A stretch of 41,960 nucleotides of DNA from Promethearchaeota archaeon (GCA_019058245.1 JAHPZJ010000003.1:1-41960); one strand, 5' to 3'. Shown: positions 9,094-41,960, counted from the stretch's first letter. The notes: generated by a model not told the origin, from the sequence alone. Numbers and translations: made by a program.

Positions 9094-10212
9094 TTGAAAA
9101 TGAATAATAGAGAAATTCCTGAATCTGGAGAATCTAAGAAAGAAATGGTAAATGATACAAAAAGGTGGTCTTTTTGTCCAGTATGTGGAAATATACTATC
9201 AGACGTCAAAAATCTTAAGTTTTGTATAAAGTGTGGAATAAATCTTCAATTTCTGAAGGAAAATAAATATGTTCAAGCAAAAAGAGTGCAAAATCCTTAT
9301 ATCACACCAACCTTATCCCCTCCGCTTTCCAAGCCTCCCATTAAATATGGTCCGAAAAAAATTTCAGATGAAGAAATATTTAATACAAAAGAATTAAAAT
9401 TGTGGGGTACTTGGCCTTCCATTGGGATTCCATTATTGGCCTTTGTTATAATGACTATTGTAACTGCGGCAATTATGTTTATTATAATGTTCTTTTCTTT
9501 TAATTTTAATCTTAATCTATTAAATAATTTAATATCAAATCCCTACTTCGTAATATTTAGTTTATTTATTGAACTGATTTTTATACTTGTTCCTGTACTA
9601 TACATAGGTCAATATTTTCAAAATCCTACTTTAAAAAACAGACTTGAATTATTAGGTTTTACTAGAAAAGGTTTTAATAGAGTAGGATTAATTCAAGAAA
9701 TCTTAATAGGATTAGGATTTGCTATAGTAGGAATCGTATTAGTATTGGGATCATCCTTTTTAATTGAGAGATTCTTGGAGTCTGTTTTTAATGTTACATT
9801 TAGCAATGCTTCAACAGAGACAGATATAATCTTCTCTTCAGCAGATATTCTCATCATCGTTCTCTTTTCTATTTTAATGATTCTTGTTATAGGACCATCT
9901 GAAGAAATATTATTTAGAGGTTTTATGCAAAAAGGTCTAACCCGAAATTTAGGAAATTGGGGGGGAATTCTGCTTACTGCATTTATTTTTGCGATTATTC
10001 ACGTCTTAGAAATTATTATCTCATATTTAGATAGTCCAATCCTCTTACTTTTTTCATTTATTTATTCATTTATTCCTTATTTTTTGATCTCCCTTTTACT
10101 AGGATTAACTTACTATTGGCGGAATGAAAACCTAATAGCTGTCATTATTACTCATGGTGTGTATAACTCATTAACTATAATTTTAGCATATTTTTTTCCA
10201 TTTTTATTTTAG
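9094..10212 (+). CDS. CPBP family intramembrane glutamic endopeptidase (Rce1/Abi-like) with N-terminal zinc ribbon
   Basis: EEILFRG, FAIIH, HGVYN motifs, multiple TM helices, CPVC..CIKC; start may be ATG 9100. Confidence 0.9.
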   Translation: MKMNNREIPESGESKKEMVNDTKRWSFCPVCGNILSDVKNLKFCIKCGINLQFLKENKYVQAKRVQNPYITPTLSPPLSKPPIKYGPKKISDEEIFNTKELKLWGTWPSIGIPLLAFVIMTIVTAAIMFIIMFFSFNFNLNLLNNLISNPYFVIFSLFIELIFILVPVLYIGQYFQNPTLKNRLELLGFTRKGFNRVGLIQEILIGLGFAIVGIVLVLGSSFLIERFLESVFNVTFSNASTETDIIFSSADILIIVLFSILMILVIGPSEEILFRGFMQKGLTRNLGNWGGILLTAFIFAIIHVLEIIISYLDSPILLLFSFIYSFIPYFLISLLLGLTYYWRNENLIAVIITHGVYNSLTIILAYFFPFLF

Positions 10213-13914: not shown

Positions 13915-14018
13915 TGGGAGAGGGGGGAATTGAACCCCCGACCACTTGGCCCCCAGCCAAATTAACTTGATTATTTAAATACTAATTAATGTATCATACC
14001 AAGCTAGACTACCCTCCC
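13915..14018 (-). tRNA. tRNA-Pro(GGG) with a BHB intron at 27/28 (13961-13990)
   Basis: Spliced: GGGAGGG TA GTCT AGCTTGGTA TGAT A CTTGG CTGGGGG CCAAG TGGTC GGGGG TTCAATT CCCCC CTCTCCC A, followed by oligo-T. Confidence 0.92.
13961..13990 (-). other. 30-nt tRNA intron at 27/28 (anticodon stem)
   Basis: Central helix TGAT/GTTA (two G-U pairs), bulges AC^A and AT^T, inner stem TT-ATTA/TAAT-AA; removal restores the stem CTTGG/CCAAG. Confidence 0.82.
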
Positions 14019-25842: not shown

Positions 25843-28800
25843 TCAATTAATTGTTTCTTCTTTATTTTTTTTCAGAACATAAAATACCATAACTAAAACT
25901 GTTAGGACTATAGGTAATGCAATTATAACAGGATTATTTCCACTAAAAAGGTAAAAATAATATGAGATAGTTATAATAGAAGCAAATAAAGCGATTACAC
26001 TACCATACTGACTAGCTAAATTTTTCAGATGGCGCAACATCATATTTACTTTATAATTTGTACTTTTAATAACTTCTAATTCAGTTTCATCTAATTCATC
26101 TAAAACTTCTGGATTCTCGAAATATATAGAAATTCTTGGATCAAACTTACCTTGTAATTCCCCTGAACTAATTAAAAATAATAAATGGTCCTGAATATTT
26201 TGCTTTTTTATTTTCAATTCGTTGTTTAGGAATCCAACTGTTAAATATTCATTCGCCACAGCCTTTATTGTCATTCTAATATATGATTTCAATATCAAAC
26301 GTTCTAAAGCTTTTACTTTCTCATTTAAAATCTCAGAATATTCCTCAATAAATTTGTTAAAATCATCTAAAATAAATTTTGAAATTTGTGTGAAATTTTT
26401 TGACTTTCTAGAAAAATCTTTAAATGTATTATCAATATAGCGTTTAACTTCTTTAATTTCTAATTCAATATTTTTGGCTCGTTTTTGTATTAGATAATTG
26501 CTTTTCTTGAATTCTTTAATTTCGATGTTATCTTCTACTTTTCTTTCTAAATTACCAAGTAATTGACTCAAATGTATTTTGTAATCATTAATTAATTTAA
26601 GCAATTGTTCGCGAAATGATTCATTCTTCAATGAATTTATCTGATCGTTAATTTTTTGTACTTTATTTTCAAAATCTTTTATATACGTATTTTTTACAAA
26701 CACATATAATTCTCTTATTTCAGGGATTAACTTATTTGGATCCCCTGTTGCATTCAAAACTATTTTTATTTGTTCCTCTATTTTATCTTGAACTTTTTTA
26801 AAATTTTCTTTTATGCTTAGCTTTTCAGTTTCAAAAGCATCTTGGATTTTTCCATAGTTATCATAACCTTCCATTCTTTTGAAATTTTTATTGCTAAATT
26901 CTCTTAATTCCATATTGAACATATTGAACTGTTTTTCAATGTATACTTGCATTTTATTAAATATCTTTATACTACTTTTTATATTATTAATAGCCATTCT
27001 ATCATTTTCTAAAGTAGATTCAAAATGATTTTTAGTTTTAAGGAATTCTTCTCTTTCTTGAATAATATTAAGATCATTAGCTTTTTTATAGAATTTATTT
27101 GGGAGGGAATCATCGAAGATACTTAATTCCTTAATTCTATTTTGAAGCTCCAGCATATTTACATTTAAGGTTCTATTCCTTATACTTGAATCATATAAAG
27201 CTAAAATCTTTCCAATTCTCTCTCTGTTTAATTTTAATAAATGATTATCCACAAAACTCTTAAGATCTTTATTTAAATAATAATAATCTGTGTAGAGCAA
27301 AATGATTTTATCCTCTTCATTAAGCTCTGCATTTATTTTTGAAATATCTATCATATCCTTTAATCGATTAATAAGAATTTTGCATGATAATTTTACTTCC
27401 TTCTTTAAATCATCAAGTTTAATGTAATTTGTTTTCTTTTCAATTGCTATGATATTTACTCTATTTGAAATAATCTTATTAATATATTCATCTTTTAAAA
27501 CAGAAATGTCATTATTATAAGAATCTATGAAATTTTCCCATTGAATTATACTTAATTCTGATTGTTCCTTAAAATTCTCAATATTCCTTACACACTCATT
27601 TAATTTTTTCAAATACAATTTATTTGATTTTGTAAGTTGACTATGAATATTATCTAATTCTTTATTAACTTGGTCAATCTTTAAGTTTTTAGATTGATCG
27701 AAATTAGTTTTGATTATTTTTAAGTGGGATTTTAAATTAGCAATTTCTTGTGAAACAAAATTATCAAAATCTTCAATTTTAGATTTATTTCTCTCTTCAA
27801 TTATAAAATTTTTTAATGTTTTAACCTGATTAGCAATTAACTCAATTACTTCAGCTTCTAATTCTTCTAATTTCTCCTGTAAATGGCGACAAAGTAAATA
27901 GATTTTTTGTTTCTTTCTTACTTCTCGTTTTACAATAGACTGAATCTCTTTGATTTCAGCTAATTTCTCCTTCATTAAGAGATCATATTCAGTCTTGGTA
28001 AAATTGAAAGCATCTTGAAATTCATTTGCTTTTATTTTCCTTTTTGCTTTATCTCCAATTTCTATAATATCTGCTTTTATCTTTTTATTAATGCCCTCAA
28101 TTTTTTGAAGATTATTATTGAAAAATTGAAATCCATCGGTATAGAAATCAAATTCTGTATTAAATTGTTCCTTAATATTTATCCATTTTTCTATTATTTT
28201 TTTATGTTTTTTAATAATTTTCTTTTCTTTAATTGTAATCTGTTGAGAAACGCCATATATTATTTGATCATACTTTCTTACATTTTGAGAGAGCTGGTCC
28301 AAACTTTGAATAATACAATTTAATTCTTCCTTATCATAGTCCTTTTCGAGAACCTCGGTAAATTGCTTCTTAAATAAATCTACTTTTTTTATTAAATCTT
28401 CCTCTATAATATCTATTTTTTCATTTAAAGTCTCCAATAAACTAGCTAAGTTTCTTAATTCTTCTTTTTCTTGAATTTTACCTTTAAGATATGACTCTAC
28501 TTCTACTAATTTTTTCTGTAAAATAGAATATTCTTTTTTCCATTGAGATATTTCTGAACCTAAACTCGCTTGAATGTTGATATATTTAAGAATTTCATTA
28601 AAAGAACCTTCAATATTCTCATTTAAAAAATCTGCTTCCATTAAAGCATCACGTAGAATAAATTTTAAGCGTTCTTTTGCATAACTGATTTCATTGATTA
28701 AAAGATAACTTTCAATTTCTTCTCGAATTTGAGAACTGATATTTTTTAACTTCAATGTCATATTATAGATATCATTCTTAATATCATCTAATTTCTCTTT

Positions 28801-30255
28801 TTCTTCAAATAATCGTTCTGTATTTAGATCTACATCACATATAATAATCTTTTTCAAAAAATATTTTAAATAAAATAAATATTTAGTTCTGAATCCTAAA
28901 AATGATTTTTTAGTTCTTATAGTACCAATGAATAGTTTTTTCTTTACCATATCTTTTACAATAGGGAAAATATCTTCTTTCAATTTCAAAGGTTCCAAAT
29001 GTTCTGCCTTAAATTTTTTAAAGAGTTCAGAAAGAGATATTATACTATTGTTATTCAATTTGTTATAGAAGATTTTAAAGAATTCTTTCTTACCATAACT
29101 GAAATTACTAATAAAATTCTGGAATTCAATCTCATTATCTATAATTTGCAATTTAAAATTATAATTGAGGTTAATATATAACACAAGTTCATCTATATAT
29201 TCTACTAATCCAAAAGTCGACTTTAACTGATTAATATCGACATACTTTTCCTTTTCAAGTTGTCTGAATAGTACCCTTTCAATTTCTTCAATAAATTTCT
29301 TCCAAACGAGAGATAAAAGAATTATTAATTTTGATGTCTCATTTAATAGTTCAGGATTCCAATTTTCTGGAGTTTTTAATATTTCTTTTAATTTTTGAGT
29401 AATAAAGGAATAAATTCCTGCAGGGTTATAATCCAATAACCATGAATATAATTCAAGGATATAAACTAACCAGAAAGTAATATCAATGTTATCACCCTGA
29501 GTAAAACTGAAACTACCATTTTCTTTCTGAAGCTGTTGAAGCAATTGAAGCTCTTTATCCTTAACTTCCATATCCAAATCTAAATACTTGAAACAAAGTA
29601 ATCTAAAAATTAACGAAGAATCTTTTTTCTTTTCGTCAGCATAAGTACGGAATTGCTCTCTATTTACACGAACATCAACTCCTAGGATTGTAAATATTTC
29701 GATTATATAGTAGAGTAATTTTGAGTTTGAACTATTTTTGCAAATTTCACACTCTTTATTTTGACAGTGTAAAAATTTATTTCCCTTTTTATGAGCTAAT
29801 ACAAAATTTTTAATTTGCTCTTTAACTTGACTTCTTCCATCAGACATTAAATATTGATTTAGTAAACCTAAAGTTTTTAAACTTGATAAAGCAAAAAATG
29901 TAGAACAAATATCTGGATTATTTTCTGAATGTGGAGTGTATGTAAATCCTATTTGGTCATTTTTTTGAACTTCGCAACTTTTTATAAAAGCAAATATTTT
30001 ATCTCTATACTTCTTTTTTTCCTCTTTTAAATATTTCCTCAATAAAAGTAGCCAAAAAACATTTTCAAGATTCAGATGAGGTTCATTTATTAGTGATTGA
30101 TTAAAATGGTGATAGAATTGAATTATTTTATTATATTCACTGTAATAAAAAATTCGAATATCTCTTCTTTTAACATTTATAAAGGATGAAAAAGGCTCTT
30201 TTTTAAATTTTGTTATATACGGATATGCAAATTTGTCTTCGTAGGCATTGCTCAA
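25843..30255 (-). CDS. 1470-aa protein: prenyltransferase-like alpha/alpha repeats, several PCI/winged-helix-like domains, long coiled coils, C-terminal TM hairpin
   Basis: GFTYTP..PDICSTFFALSSL and LQKENGSFS..IDITFW repeats; YLTVGFLNNELKI..LLFLISSGELQGKFD and YIKLDDLKKEVKL..LKDMIDISKINAELN PCI-like segments; TTG start with GGAG Shine-Dalgarno. Confidence 0.75.
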   Translation of the reverse strand: MSNAYEDKFAYPYITKFKKEPFSSFINVKRRDIRIFYYSEYNKIIQFYHHFNQSLINEPHLNLENVFWLLLLRKYLKEEKKKYRDKIFAFIKSCEVQKNDQIGFTYTPHSENNPDICSTFFALSSLKTLGLLNQYLMSDGRSQVKEQIKNFVLAHKKGNKFLHCQNKECEICKNSSNSKLLYYIIEIFTILGVDVRVNREQFRTYADEKKKDSSLIFRLLCFKYLDLDMEVKDKELQLLQQLQKENGSFSFTQGDNIDITFWLVYILELYSWLLDYNPAGIYSFITQKLKEILKTPENWNPELLNETSKLIILLSLVWKKFIEEIERVLFRQLEKEKYVDINQLKSTFGLVEYIDELVLYINLNYNFKLQIIDNEIEFQNFISNFSYGKKEFFKIFYNKLNNNSIISLSELFKKFKAEHLEPLKLKEDIFPIVKDMVKKKLFIGTIRTKKSFLGFRTKYLFYLKYFLKKIIICDVDLNTERLFEEKEKLDDIKNDIYNMTLKLKNISSQIREEIESYLLINEISYAKERLKFILRDALMEADFLNENIEGSFNEILKYINIQASLGSEISQWKKEYSILQKKLVEVESYLKGKIQEKEELRNLASLLETLNEKIDIIEEDLIKKVDLFKKQFTEVLEKDYDKEELNCIIQSLDQLSQNVRKYDQIIYGVSQQITIKEKKIIKKHKKIIEKWINIKEQFNTEFDFYTDGFQFFNNNLQKIEGINKKIKADIIEIGDKAKRKIKANEFQDAFNFTKTEYDLLMKEKLAEIKEIQSIVKREVRKKQKIYLLCRHLQEKLEELEAEVIELIANQVKTLKNFIIEERNKSKIEDFDNFVSQEIANLKSHLKIIKTNFDQSKNLKIDQVNKELDNIHSQLTKSNKLYLKKLNECVRNIENFKEQSELSIIQWENFIDSYNNDISVLKDEYINKIISNRVNIIAIEKKTNYIKLDDLKKEVKLSCKILINRLKDMIDISKINAELNEEDKIILLYTDYYYLNKDLKSFVDNHLLKLNRERIGKILALYDSSIRNRTLNVNMLELQNRIKELSIFDDSLPNKFYKKANDLNIIQEREEFLKTKNHFESTLENDRMAINNIKSSIKIFNKMQVYIEKQFNMFNMELREFSNKNFKRMEGYDNYGKIQDAFETEKLSIKENFKKVQDKIEEQIKIVLNATGDPNKLIPEIRELYVFVKNTYIKDFENKVQKINDQINSLKNESFREQLLKLINDYKIHLSQLLGNLERKVEDNIEIKEFKKSNYLIQKRAKNIELEIKEVKRYIDNTFKDFSRKSKNFTQISKFILDDFNKFIEEYSEILNEKVKALERLILKSYIRMTIKAVANEYLTVGFLNNELKIKKQNIQDHLLFLISSGELQGKFDPRISIYFENPEVLDELDETELEVIKSTNYKVNMMLRHLKNLASQYGSVIALFASIITISYYFYLFSGNNPVIIALPIVLTVLVMVFYVLKKNKEETIN

Positions 30256-34620: not shown

Positions 34621-35181
34621 TTAAACTTCTTGATCTAATTCTATTTGATTATGATGATTATTAGTATTAGAAAATGTTGAACATTTTTTACGCTTACTAT
34701 CCTTTATAATAAATTGTTGAAAAAATTTGTTTTCTTCATTGATTAATTCTCTGAATTCTTCATAAATCTCTTTTAGAGTCATTTTTCTATTATTGATATT
34801 TAGGTTATTTTCCGTAATATTATTTTCATTATGTTTATCACTATTTAAAGGGATATATTTCGTATTATCAGCATCATAAATTATTTTTTCAAAGAGATCG
34901 TCATTTTCTATTTCATATTGACTTAATGCTTTTACACCATTGCTTAATTTTTTAGAATTTTCGTGATTTAATTCTAAATCGACCTTTTGATATCCTCGAA
35001 TTTGAAACTGATTGTCTAGAAAAAATTGAAAGTGGTGAGGGCATATCAGTCCTTTTTGGATTGAAATTGTAGTTAATTGAGATTTTTTATTCAGTTGTGA
35101 TCTAGGGATACCTACTAGATCTCTTGTTTTACAGATTGGACAAATTACTTGAATCTTATTTGTTTTTTTTATATTACTCAT
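34621..35181 (-). CDS. hypothetical zinc-binding protein (CxxC..CxH)
   Basis: CPIC..CPHHFQFFLDNQFQIRGYQKVD, a motif type I associate with lokiarchaeal protein families; ATG 35181 preferred. Confidence 0.65.
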   Translation of the reverse strand: MSNIKKTNKIQVICPICKTRDLVGIPRSQLNKKSQLTTISIQKGLICPHHFQFFLDNQFQIRGYQKVDLELNHENSKKLSNGVKALSQYEIENDDLFEKIIYDADNTKYIPLNSDKHNENNITENNLNINNRKMTLKEIYEEFRELINEENKFFQQFIIKDSKRKKCSTFSNTNNHHNQIELDQEV

Positions 35182-35292
35182 TAGGAACCACAAAATAAAA
35201 TTAATTTCAAGTATTTGATATATCTCTAAATTAGAATATTTAAACTTCTGTAATTCTTAGGTTTTTTCAAAATTAATTGAAAATTTATATAA

Positions 35293-36096
35293 TTATCTTT
35301 TTAGGAACATTTTCGATGAATATCTTATCCCTATGAAAAGAAAGAACAGAGAAAATATCAAAGTTAATGGCAATTGACCTACTATAATATAAGCGAATTG
35401 AGGTTCTGATGAAAAGAAAAACAATGTAATAGAAACTCCTAAAAAAATAAATGAATTAAGAGTAGCAATTTTCCAGTTTGGAGATAAAAAACCAAAAATC
35501 AAATTTGGAGGTAAAAATAAAATAATAATATTTGCTGTCGATAATAAGATTAAAATTGGCATGAATCTTGTGAATAATTGCTCCGCGTTATAGAATCGGT
35601 TTAAATTAAAATATTGAAAAATGAATAAAGTTACATTTATACTCAAAACAATTAAAAGATAAGATAAAGGGCCAACTAATAACCATGACAATAACGTCCT
35701 TATAATTGGTTTTTGCATTACTTTTCCCTTTAAATTATTACTAAATATTACTTCCATCTCATCAGGGAAAATTAATTCAGGATCATATTCGGGTGAATAT
35801 GCGTCGATAAAATCTTGCATCATATTTTTAAGTATCACCGTGATTAAATCATTATTATCACTCGTTCCTGCCACAGCTGCTCCGAGAATTCGTTCTTCTT
35901 CATTAGGAACTAAAATAAGTTTATTATTTTCCCCAAGATCAACGTTTTTAATCACACTTCCAAGAGCTTCTCTACCAAAATTAGCTATTGATGAAAAAAA
36001 TCCTATTAGAATATTTTCATCAAATTTTTTTTCAATAAAATTTTTGGAATATAATAAAATTCCATTTTCGTCCAAAAAATAAACACTTTTTAACAT
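35293..36096 (-). CDS. longin-like domain fused to ~4 TM helices
   Basis: MLKSVYFLDENGILLYSKNF..DENILIGFFSSIANFGRE..VILKNMMQDFIDAY longin pattern; hydrophobic C-terminal half. Confidence 0.75.
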   Translation of the reverse strand: MLKSVYFLDENGILLYSKNFIEKKFDENILIGFFSSIANFGREALGSVIKNVDLGENNKLILVPNEEERILGAAVAGTSDNNDLITVILKNMMQDFIDAYSPEYDPELIFPDEMEVIFSNNLKGKVMQKPIIRTLLSWLLVGPLSYLLIVLSINVTLFIFQYFNLNRFYNAEQLFTRFMPILILLSTANIIILFLPPNLIFGFLSPNWKIATLNSFIFLGVSITLFFFSSEPQFAYIIVGQLPLTLIFSLFFLFIGIRYSSKMFLKR

Positions 36097-36126
36097 TTTA
36101 TTCTTCCATATCATTAATTTTTAATT

Positions 36127-37872
36127 TTATGTGTAACTACTTTCAAAAAATTCTTTATAATCTTCTAAGGATGCTTTATACCTTTTAAAACTGAAAAGAG
36201 AATGACCAAATAATTTTGTTAATCGAATTATCATCTTATTAGGCTCATCTTTTAAAAAAATTTTATATTTTTCATTTTTTCTCTCTTCTTGAATTTTTGC
36301 TATTTCATCAAACTCACGTAGTTTTTCAATCAATGATTCATCAGGATTACTTAATTCTATCGTAAGAATTTCTCCTGATTGAGGTAATTCTTCCATTAAT
36401 TTGTTGAAAGTTCCAATTTTTGATGCGTTTTTACTAATAGTTAATATTTGATCACATTTAGAAACTATACCCTCTGGGGCATGAAAGATTAAAATTACAT
36501 TAAATTTCTCTTTAATATTTTGCATATAATTATTAAATTTGTCATATTCCAATCGATCTAATATTTCATAAGGAATAAAGAACATAATTATTGAGGGAAA
36601 TGATACTAAGGATCTAGCAATTGAAAATAAAAGAAAATCCAAATGATTCAACTCGGAACATCGCTTATTCTTCTTATGTAATAATCCAGTCAGCTCTAGA
36701 GCATTCTTAATATAAGTTTTACTGCGAATAAATCTCTTTGAGGGAGCCACAAATATTTCCCTTATAATTTCATCAATTCTAGGAACAAAACCTGCAGTTT
36801 TTAGTAATAATTGCAATTTAGTTTTTCTAATTTTTAAGATTTCTTTAATGTTGATTTTATATTTGATTGCTTTCTTAACCTTCATATTTAATATGTTTGA
36901 TTCATGTGCTTGGGGTAATATCACTATTTTTTCTAATTCCATTTTGTTCAAAAATTGAATTTCTTTTCCAAAAATCTTTATATTACCTGTAAATTCGGAA
37001 AAATTTCCTGAAATACTCCAGAACAAATAGAATAAATCATATTGATGCTCTGTGTCAGATAATTGTTCTTCATCATAGAGTATTCCAATTGATTTTCCTC
37101 TATGAATTCTAAAAGAAATGTTTTGAACACCATTCTCTATAGAGACATTTTCAAGCAATAAGTGTTGTGAATTTGGTCTTAATCTATCTAATTTTAAGCG
37201 CGTTTCTACTATATTACATACTTTTTGGATTAATTGGTAAATATGAGGAGGATTTAGTTCATTCCAATTTTTGATAAGATCCACATTGTTAAACTCCCTT
37301 TCACTTATAATTTTTAAAAGTGTTTTTGAAAAGGAAAAAAATGGTAGAAGAGGGTATTTTTCAAAATTTATTTGTAATTTTATAACAAAATAAGGATAAG
37401 AAATTCTAAATTCTCTATGGTAAGGATTATTATCAATCATATAATTTTCAAATCTATTATCCAATAATTCCACTTCTTTTTCGAGTATCATCATATGATT
37501 TTGAAATTCTTTTCTAATGAGTTTCCTCATACGTTCGATTATTTTTTTAGGACTAACAAGTCCGTCATTATCAAAATCAGGCTCAACAATTAATTCATTA
37601 AAGTCAATTTCATCTATGAGTGGAGTATAAATTTTTAATAAAGGCACTCCCCTATCCTTTACATCCTGATTAGTAAAGAATAATACTTCAATAAATGATT
37701 TCTTATAAATTAAATTTAGAATTGAAGCAATCCCAAAGGTATTTTCTCGATATGTAATCCAAAAACGTTTAGAAAACCTGACGGCATCTAATATTTTTAA
37801 TCTTAGACGTTCTAACTCAATGGTTCTAGGATCCTTGAGCAATTTGATTTTCTTAATTTTAATAGATTTCAT
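36127..37872 (-). CDS. UBC/UEV/RWD-like domain(s) fused to a degenerate ABC ATPase
   Basis: LQINFEKYPLLPFFSF..LIKNWNELNPPHIYQLI E2-fold pattern; ABC scaffold (QNISFRIHRGKSIGIL, ILPQ, SIARSL, LIFH) lacking Walker A, LSGGQ and Walker B DE. Confidence 0.72.
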   Translation of the reverse strand: MKSIKIKKIKLLKDPRTIELERLRLKILDAVRFSKRFWITYRENTFGIASILNLIYKKSFIEVLFFTNQDVKDRGVPLLKIYTPLIDEIDFNELIVEPDFDNDGLVSPKKIIERMRKLIRKEFQNHMMILEKEVELLDNRFENYMIDNNPYHREFRISYPYFVIKLQINFEKYPLLPFFSFSKTLLKIISEREFNNVDLIKNWNELNPPHIYQLIQKVCNIVETRLKLDRLRPNSQHLLLENVSIENGVQNISFRIHRGKSIGILYDEEQLSDTEHQYDLFYLFWSISGNFSEFTGNIKIFGKEIQFLNKMELEKIVILPQAHESNILNMKVKKAIKYKINIKEILKIRKTKLQLLLKTAGFVPRIDEIIREIFVAPSKRFIRSKTYIKNALELTGLLHKKNKRCSELNHLDFLLFSIARSLVSFPSIIMFFIPYEILDRLEYDKFNNYMQNIKEKFNVILIFHAPEGIVSKCDQILTISKNASKIGTFNKLMEELPQSGEILTIELSNPDESLIEKLREFDEIAKIQEERKNEKYKIFLKDEPNKMIIRLTKLFGHSLFSFKRYKASLEDYKEFFESSYT

Positions 37873-40800
37873 TCATTTAGACACCTCCATTGCTTTATAG
37901 CGGAAATATTGCTCCATTTTCGAATCTATTTGTTTTACTTCTTGAATTGAATTTTTTCCTATCTTTTCTTCTATCCTTTCAACTAATGTATCAATATTTA
38001 AATTGGAAAATATAGAATAATTAGTACCTGCTTTATTTTCTAGAACTTTATCAATTCCTTCAATCAATTCGAGTTTTTCAATTGCATTTTCTTTTATATT
38101 CGTAAATTCAACTTCGATTGATCTACCTTTTCCTGGTAAATTTGATAAGAGTTCTTTTGGTTGCCCAAAATCAATCATTCCTCGCTTTCGCCCAAAAATT
38201 GCTATAAGATTACAAAATCTGGATTCTTCTGGATAATGAGTAATTACAACCAAGGTGGTTTTAAATTGCTCATTAATTTTAGTTAAAACTAAAAATAGAT
38301 TTTCACGAACAACGGGGTCTAAACCAGAAGTCGGTTCATCTAAAATTAAAAATATCGGTGAGTGTATTAATCCTATTGCGATGCTAACTCGTCTTTTTTG
38401 TCCTCCAGAAAGATTTTTAACTAATTCATCCATTTTATCTTCAATTTCTAAATTTCGCAAAATTCTTTTAGCCCTACTCATAATTTCCTTTTCTGTTAGC
38501 CCATATTGACCCCCAAAATATAATAAATTATCAAATGTTGTAAAATTTTGATAAATTTTTCCTAAATCTTGAGGAACATAGCCATATATAGGTCTAATCC
38601 TTCTCGAAGTTCTCTTATTCATATTCATTCCATAAATTTGGCAAAATCCTGTGATTTTTCTCATACCCAATAACCCTTTAATAAAGGTTGATTTACCCGC
38701 TCCACTTTCTCCTAAAATACCTAATATTTTTCCATGTTCCACATTCATAGAAACTGAATCAACTATTAATTTTCCTCCAGCGAAAATGCTTAAATTTTCA
38801 CAATTAATAGCAGGAAACTTTTCTAGATATGATTCATTAAGTTTCCCCCCAATTCCTAATAATAATTTAATTCTCTGCGGTATTGAAAGCCTTTTATAAA
38901 GTTTTAACAAGATAAATACTCCAATCCCTGCAGCTTCAATAAGTAGGATATATGTTAATAACAGATTCCAAGGTTTTGAATCAAAGCTCTGATCATATTG
39001 CAATTCATCCACTATAACAATTGCATTAGCTACATTTCTTAAATCACCTCCAAATCCCGGATTGTCACCCACTCCTCCTGTGTTATTACTAACACATTGA
39101 AGATACCAATTTAAAGTAGTTTTTATATTTTCTGGCTGAAATCTGTAATCATAAAGGCCTTTTGATCCAAAATAAGTAATTAAAAAGTTTGATGGTAAGT
39201 CAAGATAAGCCCCAAAAGCGGGTAGAACTAAAAAAGAGCCATCTGAAGTTTGTGAGTTCTTTAAAAACTCAATAGCATCTATTTTAGCTAATGGTTCAGA
39301 ATTTAATAAATCAGTAAAAATTTCCAATCCATAATAAGTAGAAATTACATCACTGTGGAATCCTATGAACAGGGAAAACCCACCATCTGGATTTTGACAT
39401 GATTTCATCCAATGCGTAAGATTTACATGATCAATATTGTTTAATCCGTCAATAAGTTCTAGAGAATACAAAGCCCAATAAGTACTTTCTATTGTTGAGA
39501 TATTTGAATTAATTAAATATAAAATTACTTGGTAGAACGCGCCATACATGTTTAAAACAGCTTCTACATCTTGACCGATGCTAAATCCGCCATCAGGATT
39601 CTGAAGATCAGATAAATAATTTGTTATATTTCCAGTTTGATAATCACTAGGCCACTTATTTGTAAAAGGAAGAAGGTTATCATAGATATTTAATCCACAA
39701 TATGTTGCATATAAAGTGGCATTTTCACCAGGAGAAGAAGAAAATCCACCATTATATGGATTATAACATCTTTCAACAAAGTTTGTTATGTTCTTTAATA
39801 TTTCTTCATTCATAATCTCTTTATTTATAAATTCAGTAAAAATTTTAGGATTATAATTATAAAGGGCTGAGATTCCGTTAAAATTTGCTTCTATTGTAGT
39901 ACCTCCAAATAATGAATTTTGTCCTTGAAAAAAATGAAGCCATTCATAATAATTAAGAGTAGCTTTTCTAATATCAGCAAGGTTACTTTCAGTTAAGGAT
40001 TCTAATTTGAGAATATCAATTGATTTCATAGCAGCCCACCCTGATATAAAATCGGAATTATCATTTGAATTTGGACTTGAACGAAAACCCCCATCTCCAT
40101 TTGAACAATTAAGTATAAAAGATAGAGTTTTTTGTTCGTCAAATAAGAGAGGAGTAGGTAAACCTAATCTTTTTAATGATGATAAAGCGTAATACGTCGA
40201 TTGGACATCAGAAGGTCCACCTAAAATATTAGAAAAGCCATAATCTATAACATTGTATAGCGAACTAAGATAGATATAAATAGCCGACAATTCTGCAGAA
40301 GTATAGGTCATATTCATTCCTAAAAATGCTTGAATTCCGTAATAGGTTGATTCGGCTGTTGCTAAACTTAAAGCATCATTTGTCATTTTATAACTCCCTA
40401 CTAGCCATGTGGAATTAATATATTTTGAAATGTTCTCATTTCTAAGAATGAAATCCCCATTTAAAGTATTAGCTAAATAAATAGCACATGAAGTAGATTT
40501 TAAATCAGTAATATTTAAGAAGGGAATTAACTTAAATCCCCCTTCTTCTTTGTTCAGTGAATTATTTATATAATTTATAATATTGTCTGTCTGATTTTGC
40601 TGAATTTTATTTTGCAAATATGATTGATTTGCAATCTCTAAAGTTTTTATTGCTTGATATGTAGAAATCATATTTCCAAATCCACCTATATCTGAATATG
40701 AACCATCTATATTTTGTTTTTCAAAAATATAATCAAAAAATATATTTGGTTTCTCTGTTTTCACATTTTGGTTTGAAATATTATTTGGATTCACTAATTC

Positions 40801-41028
40801 AGACGAAGATATACTAACAAATGTAAAATTTATTGAATCAATTGCTCTGAAATTAGAATCTAAAGTAGGTTCAATAAACAATCCATCATCATTTTGGTGA
40901 GTCCACGTGAAAAAAACAGCATTGTCCTTAATAAATCGAACATCTTCATTATCAATATATTCAATATAAGGAATGTTAACTAAAACAAGAGATATAATAG
41001 GAACACATACTAAAATTCCCAAAACCAA
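37873..41028 (-). CDS. prenyltransferase/squalene-cyclase-like repeat ectodomain + TM + intact ABC ATPase
   Basis: About 11 QNxDGGF..STYY-type repeats rich in N-glycosylation sequons; TM WNLLLTYILLIEAAGIGVFILL; GESGAGKST, YVPQ, LSGGQ, LILDEPT, VITH. Confidence 0.88.
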   Translation of the reverse strand: MVLGILVCVPIISLVLVNIPYIEYIDNEDVRFIKDNAVFFTWTHQNDDGLFIEPTLDSNFRAIDSINFTFVSISSSELVNPNNISNQNVKTEKPNIFFDYIFEKQNIDGSYSDIGGFGNMISTYQAIKTLEIANQSYLQNKIQQNQTDNIINYINNSLNKEEGGFKLIPFLNITDLKSTSCAIYLANTLNGDFILRNENISKYINSTWLVGSYKMTNDALSLATAESTYYGIQAFLGMNMTYTSAELSAIYIYLSSLYNVIDYGFSNILGGPSDVQSTYYALSSLKRLGLPTPLLFDEQKTLSFILNCSNGDGGFRSSPNSNDNSDFISGWAAMKSIDILKLESLTESNLADIRKATLNYYEWLHFFQGQNSLFGGTTIEANFNGISALYNYNPKIFTEFINKEIMNEEILKNITNFVERCYNPYNGGFSSSPGENATLYATYCGLNIYDNLLPFTNKWPSDYQTGNITNYLSDLQNPDGGFSIGQDVEAVLNMYGAFYQVILYLINSNISTIESTYWALYSLELIDGLNNIDHVNLTHWMKSCQNPDGGFSLFIGFHSDVISTYYGLEIFTDLLNSEPLAKIDAIEFLKNSQTSDGSFLVLPAFGAYLDLPSNFLITYFGSKGLYDYRFQPENIKTTLNWYLQCVSNNTGGVGDNPGFGGDLRNVANAIVIVDELQYDQSFDSKPWNLLLTYILLIEAAGIGVFILLKLYKRLSIPQRIKLLLGIGGKLNESYLEKFPAINCENLSIFAGGKLIVDSVSMNVEHGKILGILGESGAGKSTFIKGLLGMRKITGFCQIYGMNMNKRTSRRIRPIYGYVPQDLGKIYQNFTTFDNLLYFGGQYGLTEKEIMSRAKRILRNLEIEDKMDELVKNLSGGQKRRVSIAIGLIHSPIFLILDEPTSGLDPVVRENLFLVLTKINEQFKTTLVVITHYPEESRFCNLIAIFGRKRGMIDFGQPKELLSNLPGKGRSIEVEFTNIKENAIEKLELIEGIDKVLENKAGTNYSIFSNLNIDTLVERIEEKIGKNSIQEVKQIDSKMEQYFRYKAMEVSK

Positions 41029-41069
41029 GATACTTTTTAATAATCGTTTTGTTTTGTGCCCTAAATTAA

Positions 41070-41960
41070 TTATTTTCTAATCACCTTTACATCCTTCGAA
41101 CCAATTTCTTTTTCTTCCTCTTGTAAAATTCTAATTTGAAAATACCTTCTAAAAGTAGCGATATCTTTACTCATTGAAGTTATTATAATATTATTATCTA
41201 ATATATACTCGATTACTTTTGGTAGATTTTCTTCAAAATTTTCCATTAAAACCTCAATTGCTTCGTTTCCTACTCTTATTATTCGTCTTATAGAGGGAAA
41301 TTTCTCAATAAAAGCAATTATTTTTTCATTTAGATTTTGAATTGTAAACCTTGCTATTAATCCTTCACTTGGTAGTGAAGATATCAGGTTTTGAGAAGTA
41401 TCAAATTCTAATAACCTTCCATCTCTTAAAATTGCCGCTTTATCACATATTAATGCTGCTTCTAAATCATGAGTAATTATAAACATCGTTGTATTTAACT
41501 TTTGGTTTAATTTCTTTAAATAGCTAAGGATATCATAACGCTTGGAGGCATCCACGCCTTAAACTCTGATAGTTGAATCAACTATATAGTGTAGTCGGCT
41601 CATCTAAGAATAGGACATGTGGATTATGAATTAAACCGATAGCCATTGACAGTCGTTTCTTTTCTCCCCCACTCATCTTTTCAACTTTCTTTTTCCAAGT
41701 ATCTTCTGGAATATCAAGGATTTTAAACAATCTTTCTGCTATTTCTTTTGCATTTTTTTTATTCATTCCATATGTAGAGGTAAATACCTCAACATTTACC
41801 ATTGGATCTAATTCGAAATACAAATTTAACATTTCAAGTTGAGGAACATATCCAATATTGCTGAGGATCTTTGAATGATTACTCTTTTTATCGGGAGATA
41901 AATCAGTAACTTTAACTTCTCCAGACCAATTTTTTTTTTCAATTTGACAGGTCATTACTC
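41070..41960 (-). CDS. ABC-2/DrrA-type ABC ATPase, 5'-truncated by the window edge, interrupted by a 31-nt BHB intron; exons >41960-41591 and 41559-41070
   Basis: [21 protein letters not shown] in exon 1; GVDASKR..IITHDLE..GRLL in exon 2; joined junction DEPTTGVDA. Confidence 0.88.
41560..41590 (-). other. candidate mRNA intron with bulge-helix-bulge motif
   Basis: GCC-GACT-AC^A-CT-AT-ATAGTTG-ATT-CAACTAT-C-AG-AGTT-TA^A-GGC: outer helix GCC/GGC, 4-bp central helix GACT/AGTT, two 3-nt bulges, inner hairpin. Confidence 0.82.

Follow-up and report, generated by a model that had tools for sequence, protein, structure and literature searches.

A Lokiarchaeial ABC-2 transporter operon with predicted RWD and longin modules, a candidate regulated exporter of hydrophobic cargo

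What does a block of ATP-binding cassette (ABC) ATPase genes do when it is joined to protein modules of eukaryotic likeness in an archaeon? The question is raised by one end of a 41,960-nucleotide stretch of DNA from Promethearchaeota archaeon (GCA_019058245.1 JAHPZJ010000003.1:1-41960), here called the window. It is the entire contig C3 of a 3.1-Mb low-GC genome, 76% complete, whose relatives are Promethearchaeota/Lokiarchaeia. Four co-directional minus-strand genes, i.e., ATPase 1, g2, g3, and g4, follow one another with intergenic gaps of 5, 0, and 12-30 nt, and the g2 stop and g3 start abut as TGA-ATG (37873/37872). A first-pass annotation of the sequence had described this tight packing, which was borne out in coordinates and gaps, and had proposed signalling or cargo sorting rather than simple solute transport. 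The locus is better read as part of a regulated exporter of hydrophobic, possibly isoprenoid, putative cargo, a reading to which a probability of about 0.5 is assigned.

No permease is visible in the window because this contig ends inside ATPase 1, where the contig edge removes ~45 N-terminal codons, Walker A included. That one may lie upstream had been allowed for, and relatives do have two: their fetched loci carry a pair of ABC-2 permease genes directly 5' of ATPase 1. The complete unit consists of six genes, i.e., permease A, permease B, ATPase 1, g2, g3, and g4. The full order is present in 15 of 22 listed loci, and contig-end truncation or insertion affects most of the remaining seven. 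Since the gene order recurs in ~20 fetched loci, it is far beyond chance; this synteny, which the first-pass annotation had wanted checked, is conserved within part of Lokiarchaeia. Both permeases are present in L051, which has 92% DNA identity to the window over 5.9 kb. The permeases match Pfam ABC2_membrane_3 (E 1e-25 and 4e-23), and the only PDB sequence matches of permease B are insect ABCH transporters (E 2e-11). A search of the other contigs of the source genome (76% complete assembly) for the permeases and the 5' end of ATPase 1 gave nothing but a 26% paralogue on C6. What looks like a g2-g3 fusion in L032 is explained by a 100-N scaffold gap.

In ATPase 1 and ATPase 2, the latter being the ATPase part of g2, Walker A, Q-loop, signature, Walker B-Glu, D-loop, and H-loop are intact in all 19 aligned rows (Walker A of the window's own ATPase 1 lies off the contig). 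The intact motifs of these nucleotide-binding domains (NBDs), and the ABC-2 transmembrane domains encoded with them in relatives, place the predicted transporter in type V, i.e., the ABC-2 type. Two permeases and two NBDs are the parts list of type V transporters generally (PMC8386196). Permeases A and B and ATPases 1 and 2 would very probably form the pump. Because two permeases and two intact ATPases make a complete, YbhFSR-like transporter, the proposal of signalling or sorting in place of simple transport is unsupported.

The known systems nearest to this core were compared. YbhFSR has two different ABC-2 permeases with extracytoplasmic loops and two different NBDs (PMC13739795). The operon resembles YbhFSR, RbbA, YhhJ, and DrrAB in its two permeases, two live NBDs, and DrrA-type C-terminal domain. 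In contrast to YbhFSR, its NBDs are on separate chains, one of them membrane-tethered with a 650-amino-acid ectodomain; it adds a dead NBD with tandem RWD domains and a subunit of a longin domain and four transmembrane helices, and there is no membrane-fusion protein. ABCA1/3/4/7 and insect ABCH give the best PDB matches of ATPase 1 (ABCA3/ABCA1) and permease B, and share a large ectodomain and regulatory C-terminal domains. Unlike them, the operon is split into six genes and its main ectodomain is a barrel on the ATPase chain, not loops of the transmembrane domains; the likeness is one of sequence matches, not orthology, and for ATPase 1 it is weak evidence because NBDs are generally alike. 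The best NCBIfam profiles of ATPase 1 are DrrA and RbbA, and scores stay below the curated cut-offs (DrrA 192 and 155 bits vs 312; RbbA 145 vs 1050). As judged from sequence, the operon works like a YbhFSR/ABCA-type transporter and belongs to no named family by score. No description of the operon was found in the literature, with subscription journals outside the coverage.

The proposed system is a six-subunit regulated type V (ABC-2) exporter. Hydrophobic cargo is favoured because the nearest solved relatives, ABCH and ABCA, move lipids, and because archaeal lipids are isoprenoid and so suit a prenyltransferase-like pocket. Candidate cargoes would include an archaeal ether lipid or a lipid-linked glycan.

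The pocket is expected in g2. This protein has an N-terminal hydrophobic anchor, an ectodomain of ~650 amino acids with prenyltransferase-beta-like repeats (Pfam Prenyltrans, E 3.5e-36), a second transmembrane helix, and an intact ABC_tran domain; the ectodomain, a transmembrane helix, and the intact ATPase had been read from the sequence alone. The ectodomain, which is probably two alpha/alpha barrels, matches the beta subunits of RabGGTase and FTase (E 8e-14) and shares their repeat sequence (PF00432). The YW of the RabGGTase-beta repeat, which lines the isoprenoid pocket, is kept in the alignment, and the second half of the ectodomain is the more conserved (62 vs 18 near-invariant columns). 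In 40 homologues the zinc ligands of prenyltransferases, i.e., a conserved His and DxC, were not found, and no alpha-subunit gene was found in the operon. By these two features g2 is not a protein prenyltransferase beta subunit. It differs from RabGGTase/FTase beta also in a predicted extracellular location, twice the length, and fusion to a transmembrane helix and an ABC ATPase. The transmembrane pattern and basic flanks agree with an outside location. The start of g2 is uncertain: the TTG of relatives is TTA in the window (41062-41064), and the true start may be the first standard one, 41028, which would remove basic residues before the anchor. Facing outward, the barrel would act as a non-catalytic acceptor for hydrophobic, probably isoprenoid-bearing cargo in the manner of ABCA/ABCH ectodomains, a role considered possible at slightly under even odds. 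Another gene with prenyltransferase-like repeats lies at 25843-30255 (-). It encodes a 1470-amino-acid protein, with the repeats N-terminal and a transmembrane pair C-terminal, that is barely similar to the g2 ectodomain; many relatives keep it downstream of the operon, at a distance of a few genes.

The same ectodomain could serve uptake. In a type V importer, the tethered barrel would be a surface binding protein that passes a hydrophobic nutrient, i.e., isoprenoid, lipid, or corrinoid (cf. alpha6/alpha6 B12 binders), to the permeases, and g3 and g4 would tune uptake. A large conserved ectodomain on a transporter subunit, as seen here, is typical of uptake systems. Within the source family the operon is flanked by genes for acyl-CoA synthetase and FAD/FeS oxidoreductase, and its patchy distribution would suit a nutrient module. 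Importers, ABCA4 among them, also belong to type V (PMC8386196). However, the flanking metabolic genes differ outside the source family (L045, L049, and L070), and the nearest profiles, i.e., DrrA, RbbA, NodI, and ABCH, are those of exporters. An importer is considered improbable.

The third ATPase gene, g3, carries the first of the eukaryote-like modules. The AlphaFold model of its N-terminus (predicted local distance difference test score 89.9) contains two UBC-fold units. Foldseek placed the FANCL double RWD first (E 1.3e-3, above the 0.001 mark), then CENP-O/P, Knl1, BRE, and E2s; VIA gave Z 9.3 against both Ubc8 and VPS37A, and 8.4 against the GCN2 RWD. Unit 2 reached Z 9.3 with a root-mean-square deviation (rmsd) of 2.6-2.7 over ~100 residues, and unit 1 reached Z 7.7. 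The assignment rests on sequence as well as shape because the g3 RWD profile retrieves Loki-type multi-RWD proteins that pass the Pfam RWD cut-off, two of them with weak RING matches. The g3 N-terminus is thus predicted to be a tandem of non-catalytic RWD/UEV (UBC-like) domains. A YPxxP motif is found in 61 of 62 g3 rows, HPN in 0 of 62, and Cys after YPxxP in none. By these motifs g3 is predicted not to be an E2 ubiquitin-conjugating enzyme. An ABC NBD directly follows the RWD pair, where an ESCRT-I UEV protein would have a coiled coil and steadiness box. The UBC fold without catalytic Cys, tandem in g3, is shared with the double RWD of FANCL, BRE/BABAM2, Knl1, and CENP-O/P, the UEV of TSG101/Vps23/VPS37A, and the RWD of GCN2. 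Unlike these, g3 is fused to an ABC pseudo-ATPase and has no RING or steadiness box, and the identity is 7-20%. Of the earlier description, i.e., an E2-fold-like domain with a degenerate ATPase, the fold and the degeneracy stand, whereas the single domain is replaced by two units. Pfam, NCBIfam, and PDB sequence searches missed the RWD and longin parts, no Pfam match being found for g3 or g4, and the ESM Atlas feature search gave nothing beyond the cluster of the protein itself or one weak row.

Two observations stand beside the RWD pair. A conserved DxDxDG EF-hand-like loop between the units (37549-37578 (-), g3 residues 99-108), kept mainly within the family, is a possible Ca-binding site; the calmodulin/secretagogin matches of the g3 profile rest on this one short loop and were rejected as a fold call. 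The multi-RWD proteins (P0271, P0273, P0274, and P0277) form a Lokiarchaeial family of 550-690 amino acids present in most family genomes, and some have a weak N-terminal RING match, a FANCL-like parts list.

In the NBD of g3, Walker A, signature, and Walker B are kept in 0, 0, and 1 of 124 homologues, and the motif decay is graded towards distant families. Its ABC ancestry is recognized by the GldA profile (E 2.5e-8). The ratio of nonsynonymous to synonymous substitutions (dN/dS) is 0.10 for the pseudo-ATPase and 0.05-0.16 in every operon domain. By motif loss and substitution pattern, the third ATPase is catalytically dead yet under purifying selection.

The second module is in g4. Residues 1-126 align with AP-3 mu (Z 13.3, rmsd 3.0, 119 residues; Foldseek E 1.9e-4), a match exceeding that to roadblock/MglB (Z ~9-10), and are modelled as a longin fold, followed by four transmembrane helices. 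Structure searches and helix prediction thus agree with the earlier call of a longin-transmembrane protein, and AlphaFold and Foldseek, the latter as had been advised, support both the RWD/UEV and the longin folds. The five-strand, three-helix fold is that of the longins of AP/COPI sigma-mu, VAMP7/Sec22, TRAPP, and Mon1-Ccz1; g4 differs from those in its four helices, the lack of a SNARE motif, and its place in a transporter operon with no partner longin or GTPase recognized nearby. Longin partners, a small GTPase, and a SNARE motif were not recognized in the operon loci; they may be encoded elsewhere, and the genome has many other longins.

The two modules are linked. Of the 36 family genomes with a full g3 match, 35 have g4 next to g3, and in the remaining one a contig break intervenes. 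In three 250-amino-acid proteins a g4-like longin (E 1e-12 to 1e-15; the reversed control gave none) is joined to a g3-like RWD, a lead that both domains may act together. Two of the loci with a longin-RWD fusion gene (L090:1145-1897 and L091:2829-3590) have it flanked by a GT4 glycosyltransferase and an ArsA/ParA-like ATPase. The complex prediction of the g3 RWD pair with the g4 longin scored 0.03, which is not evidence either way. In the proposed exporter, the pseudo-ATPase would dock on or replace one active NBD via its NBD scaffold and C-terminal domain and so gate the pump, while the RWD pair and longin would be a protein-interaction input held at the membrane by g4. Taken jointly, these steps are tentative, short of an even chance.

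Eukaryote-like folds invite a different answer, i.e., a receptor-like or sorting complex. Its ABC core would be a mechanotransducer, as in FtsEX, MacB, and BceAB, and a ligand of the barrel would act through RWD/longin adaptors that recruit ubiquitin-system or trafficking/GTPase partners. Both folds are confirmed, the g3 RWD is related in sequence to the multi-RWD proteins, two of which have weak RING matches, longin-like domains of Asgard archaea often occur in fusions with Arf/Roc GTPases, and a signalling role would suit an NBD that is dead yet under selection. Yet the core is complete with intact catalytic motifs, its permeases are of the ABC-2 rather than the MacB/FtsX type, and g3 is without HPN or Cys. 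Genes for ubiquitin, E1/E2/E3, ESCRT, SNARE, or small GTPases were not recognized beside the operon in the fetched loci, whose neighbours are only partly annotated. Such a complex is regarded as unlikely. A ubiquitin or trafficking function does not follow from the modules because a shared fold alone does not show function, and there is no support for a ubiquitin or vesicle-sorting role. A bolder combination, in which all six proteins would be one complex and the membrane longin and tandem-RWD pseudo-ATPase would subject an ABCA/ABCH-like lipid exporter to the ubiquitin system or to small GTPases, with ATPase 1 also gated by splicing in some lineages, is a long shot; if true, folds of eukaryotic trafficking and ubiquitin systems would regulate the export of membrane lipids in a prokaryote.

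The ancestry of the three ATPases was examined as well. The small C-terminal domain noticed earlier on all three was recovered by hidden Markov model cross-matches (ATPase 2-ATPase 3, E 1e-5 to 1e-12; ATPase 1-ATPase 3, best 8e-5). It is not special to them: similar tails of ~85 amino acids occur on other ABC-2 ATPases of the source genome, and the TIGR01188 DrrA profile covers the domain. In the tree, each of the three forms one clade across Lokiarchaeia (100/99+), and their union against 23 other ABC ATPases is supported only at 90/86. The C-terminal domain of g3 is clearly closer to that of ATPase 2, which suggests a tandem duplication, though the tree does not settle this (approximately unbiased test, p 0.23 for ATPase 1+3). 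A simpler operon in G045 (L050) combines a single permease with members of the ATPase 1 and ATPase 2 lineages, with no barrel, RWD, or longin nearby; it suggests that these add-ons may have been built onto a pre-existing pump. At this locus (L050:295-10138), an ATPase-2-like gene with a soluble 270-amino-acid N-terminal domain, a permease, and an ATPase-1-like gene are followed by Ig/PKD surface proteins. The 592-amino-acid ATPase of L050 was rejected as a short-ectodomain version of g2, having no transmembrane helix.

This simpler relative, together with the DrrA/RbbA profiles of the core, would be expected if the operon encoded an ordinary drug or peptide exporter of the DrrAB/YbhFSR type, with g3 and g4 as co-transcribed passengers or a duplicated relic. 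But linkage of g3 to the core persists in four families and survives inversion, dN/dS is 0.10-0.16, g3 keeps the ATPase-2-like C-terminal domain, and the barrel-ATPase fusion is kept in all of the best 120 g2 homologues. The first-pass annotation had allowed that an upstream permease might explain all ATPases as an ordinary exporter. Two permeases are indeed there, but they leave the dead ATPase, the tethered barrel, and the longin-transmembrane protein unexplained, so that the operon is not just an ordinary exporter. That simpler reading is given a low probability.

Besides the importers within type V, several observations weigh against the regulated hydrophobic-cargo exporter. The ectodomain shows no more than a modest enrichment of N-glycosylation sequons (0.25 vs 0.19 per Asn). 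In the class-level relatives L046 and L047, g3 is divergently transcribed and the permeases come after g2, and L047 has no longin gene adjoining g3. Longin and RWD domains are promiscuous in Lokiarchaeia, so the fusion proteins may say little about the g3/g4 pair. Finally, the operon is missing from many near-complete relatives, and therefore it is not housekeeping lipid transport. In L046 (1895-11546) and L047 (3420-14748), the rearranged operon is followed by a MacB/FtsX permease, a helix-turn-helix protein, and a LolD-like ATPase.

The distribution was surveyed with the two modules. At E 1e-25, the longin-transmembrane gene has matches in 88 of 161 Lokiarchaeia genomes, which belong to six of the seven families, and it is single copy in the family of the source genome; weaker class-level matches (E above 1e-40) may be paralogues. 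The RWD module was not found in genomes of other Asgard classes in a 301-genome draw. With the many near-complete relatives that lack the operon, this makes it an accessory, lineage-limited block. Because it is restricted to part of Lokiarchaeia and was not found in the other Asgard classes searched, an invention within the lineage, not a eukaryotic ancestor, is the probable reading.

ATPase 1 is further split by a candidate intron. It had been called intron-split, and after scripted removal of 31 nt a single frame is open for 285 amino acids, ending with the stop at 41070, and has 96% identity to an orthologue that lacks the interruption; complete orthologues have 328-349 amino acids. The insert carries an in-frame TGA and shifts the frame. 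By pattern search, an insert of the same site and length was found in 13 loci, i.e., the source genome, six genomes of another genus, and six metagenome contigs, and its removal restores the frame in all 13; it is absent from 21 distinct orthologous sequences. L073 and L074 were discarded as chance pattern matches. A 4-bp helix and two 3-nt bulges are kept in 13/13, with variation in bulges, loop, and G-U/A-U swaps. In the bulge-helix-bulge (BHB) alignment, 97.5% of cells are paired (central helix 100%; slid controls 21-50%), and among 40 BHB-like sites on its strand the insert site ranks first in stability. Covariation among the 13 loci showed no excess over shuffles (84/500), as expected for so few, so similar sequences. 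By helix, bulges, and frame restoration, the insert is predicted to be an archaeal BHB pre-mRNA intron. EndA (two genes) and RtcB are encoded in the source genome, and at intron-bearing loci the making of ATPase 1 would, with high confidence, require EndA/RtcB splicing. In the flanks, identity is 90-96% with intron-less relatives of the same genus but ~75% with the genus that bears the intron; therefore the intron was presumably lost many times or moved sideways. The cbf5 pre-mRNA intron of Sulfolobales/Desulfurococcales (PMC2738675) is likewise a short BHB insert that breaks the coding frame at a conserved motif and is patchy among relatives, whereas the ATPase 1 insert, a candidate intron, is in a different gene and phylum. 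No description of Asgard mRNA introns was found in the literature, subscription journals again lying outside the coverage. In L065 (3639-6829, Loki_b31), ATPase 1 has, in addition to the intron, two copies of its 5' 60 codons at a distance of ~2 kb.

The operon has meaning beyond this genome. Most of the longin and RWD/UEV domains counted as Asgard eukaryotic signatures are without a known job; here their function is testable by reconstitution because both are in a tight operon with an assayable ABC pump. ABC systems do not normally include a third NBD that is completely dead, nor an ATPase joined to a barrel predicted to face outward. Very few archaeal mRNA introns are on record, and this one is a further candidate; annotation pipelines call such intron-bearing genes broken. 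New in this analysis are the intron series of 13 loci, the proteins that fuse longin and RWD, the selection test, and the ATPase tree. The features of the operon in the window are listed in Table 1.

Table 1. Positions of the operon features, counted from the first nucleotide of the window
Feature	Position	Strand	Remarks
ABC ATPase 1 exon 1	41591..41960	-	Q-loop, signature, Walker B intact; 5' end off contig
Candidate 31-nt hBHBh' bulge-helix-bulge intron	41560..41590	-	D-loop codons directly after Walker B
ABC ATPase 1 exon 2	41070..41559	-	D-loop, H-loop, C-terminal DrrA-type domain
g2: signal anchor + ectodomain + transmembrane helix + ABC ATPase 2 + C-terminal domain	37873..41064	-	
g2 second transmembrane helix	38908..38964	-	Basic residues after it (inside)
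g3 predicted N-terminal tandem RWD/UEV (UBC-fold)	37186..37830	-	Residues ~15-124 and 121-229
g3 pseudo-ATPase NBD + C-terminal domain	36127..37164	-	Walker A, signature, Walker B lost
g4 predicted longin domain	35719..36096	-	Residues 1-126 from ATG 36096
g4 four-helix membrane anchor	35293..35718	-	

Around the operon, a gene directly downstream of g4 (34621-35193 (-)) encodes a 190-amino-acid protein with a Cys/His zinc-ribbon-like N-terminus (weak Pfam Brz). It is downstream of g4 in the source genus and directly upstream of permease A in L042, L064-L067, and L069, and may be a seventh linked gene. A sigma-70 promoter scan of the locus was set aside because the method is unsuited to archaea. 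A gene of the Rce1-like CAAX prenyl protease family was found at 9094-10212 (+), 25 kb from the operon, with no link shown. At 13915-14018 (-), a tRNA (anticodon TGG, Pro, by eye) with a ~30-nt insert in the D-arm was recognized by an Rfam match and missed by ARAGORN.

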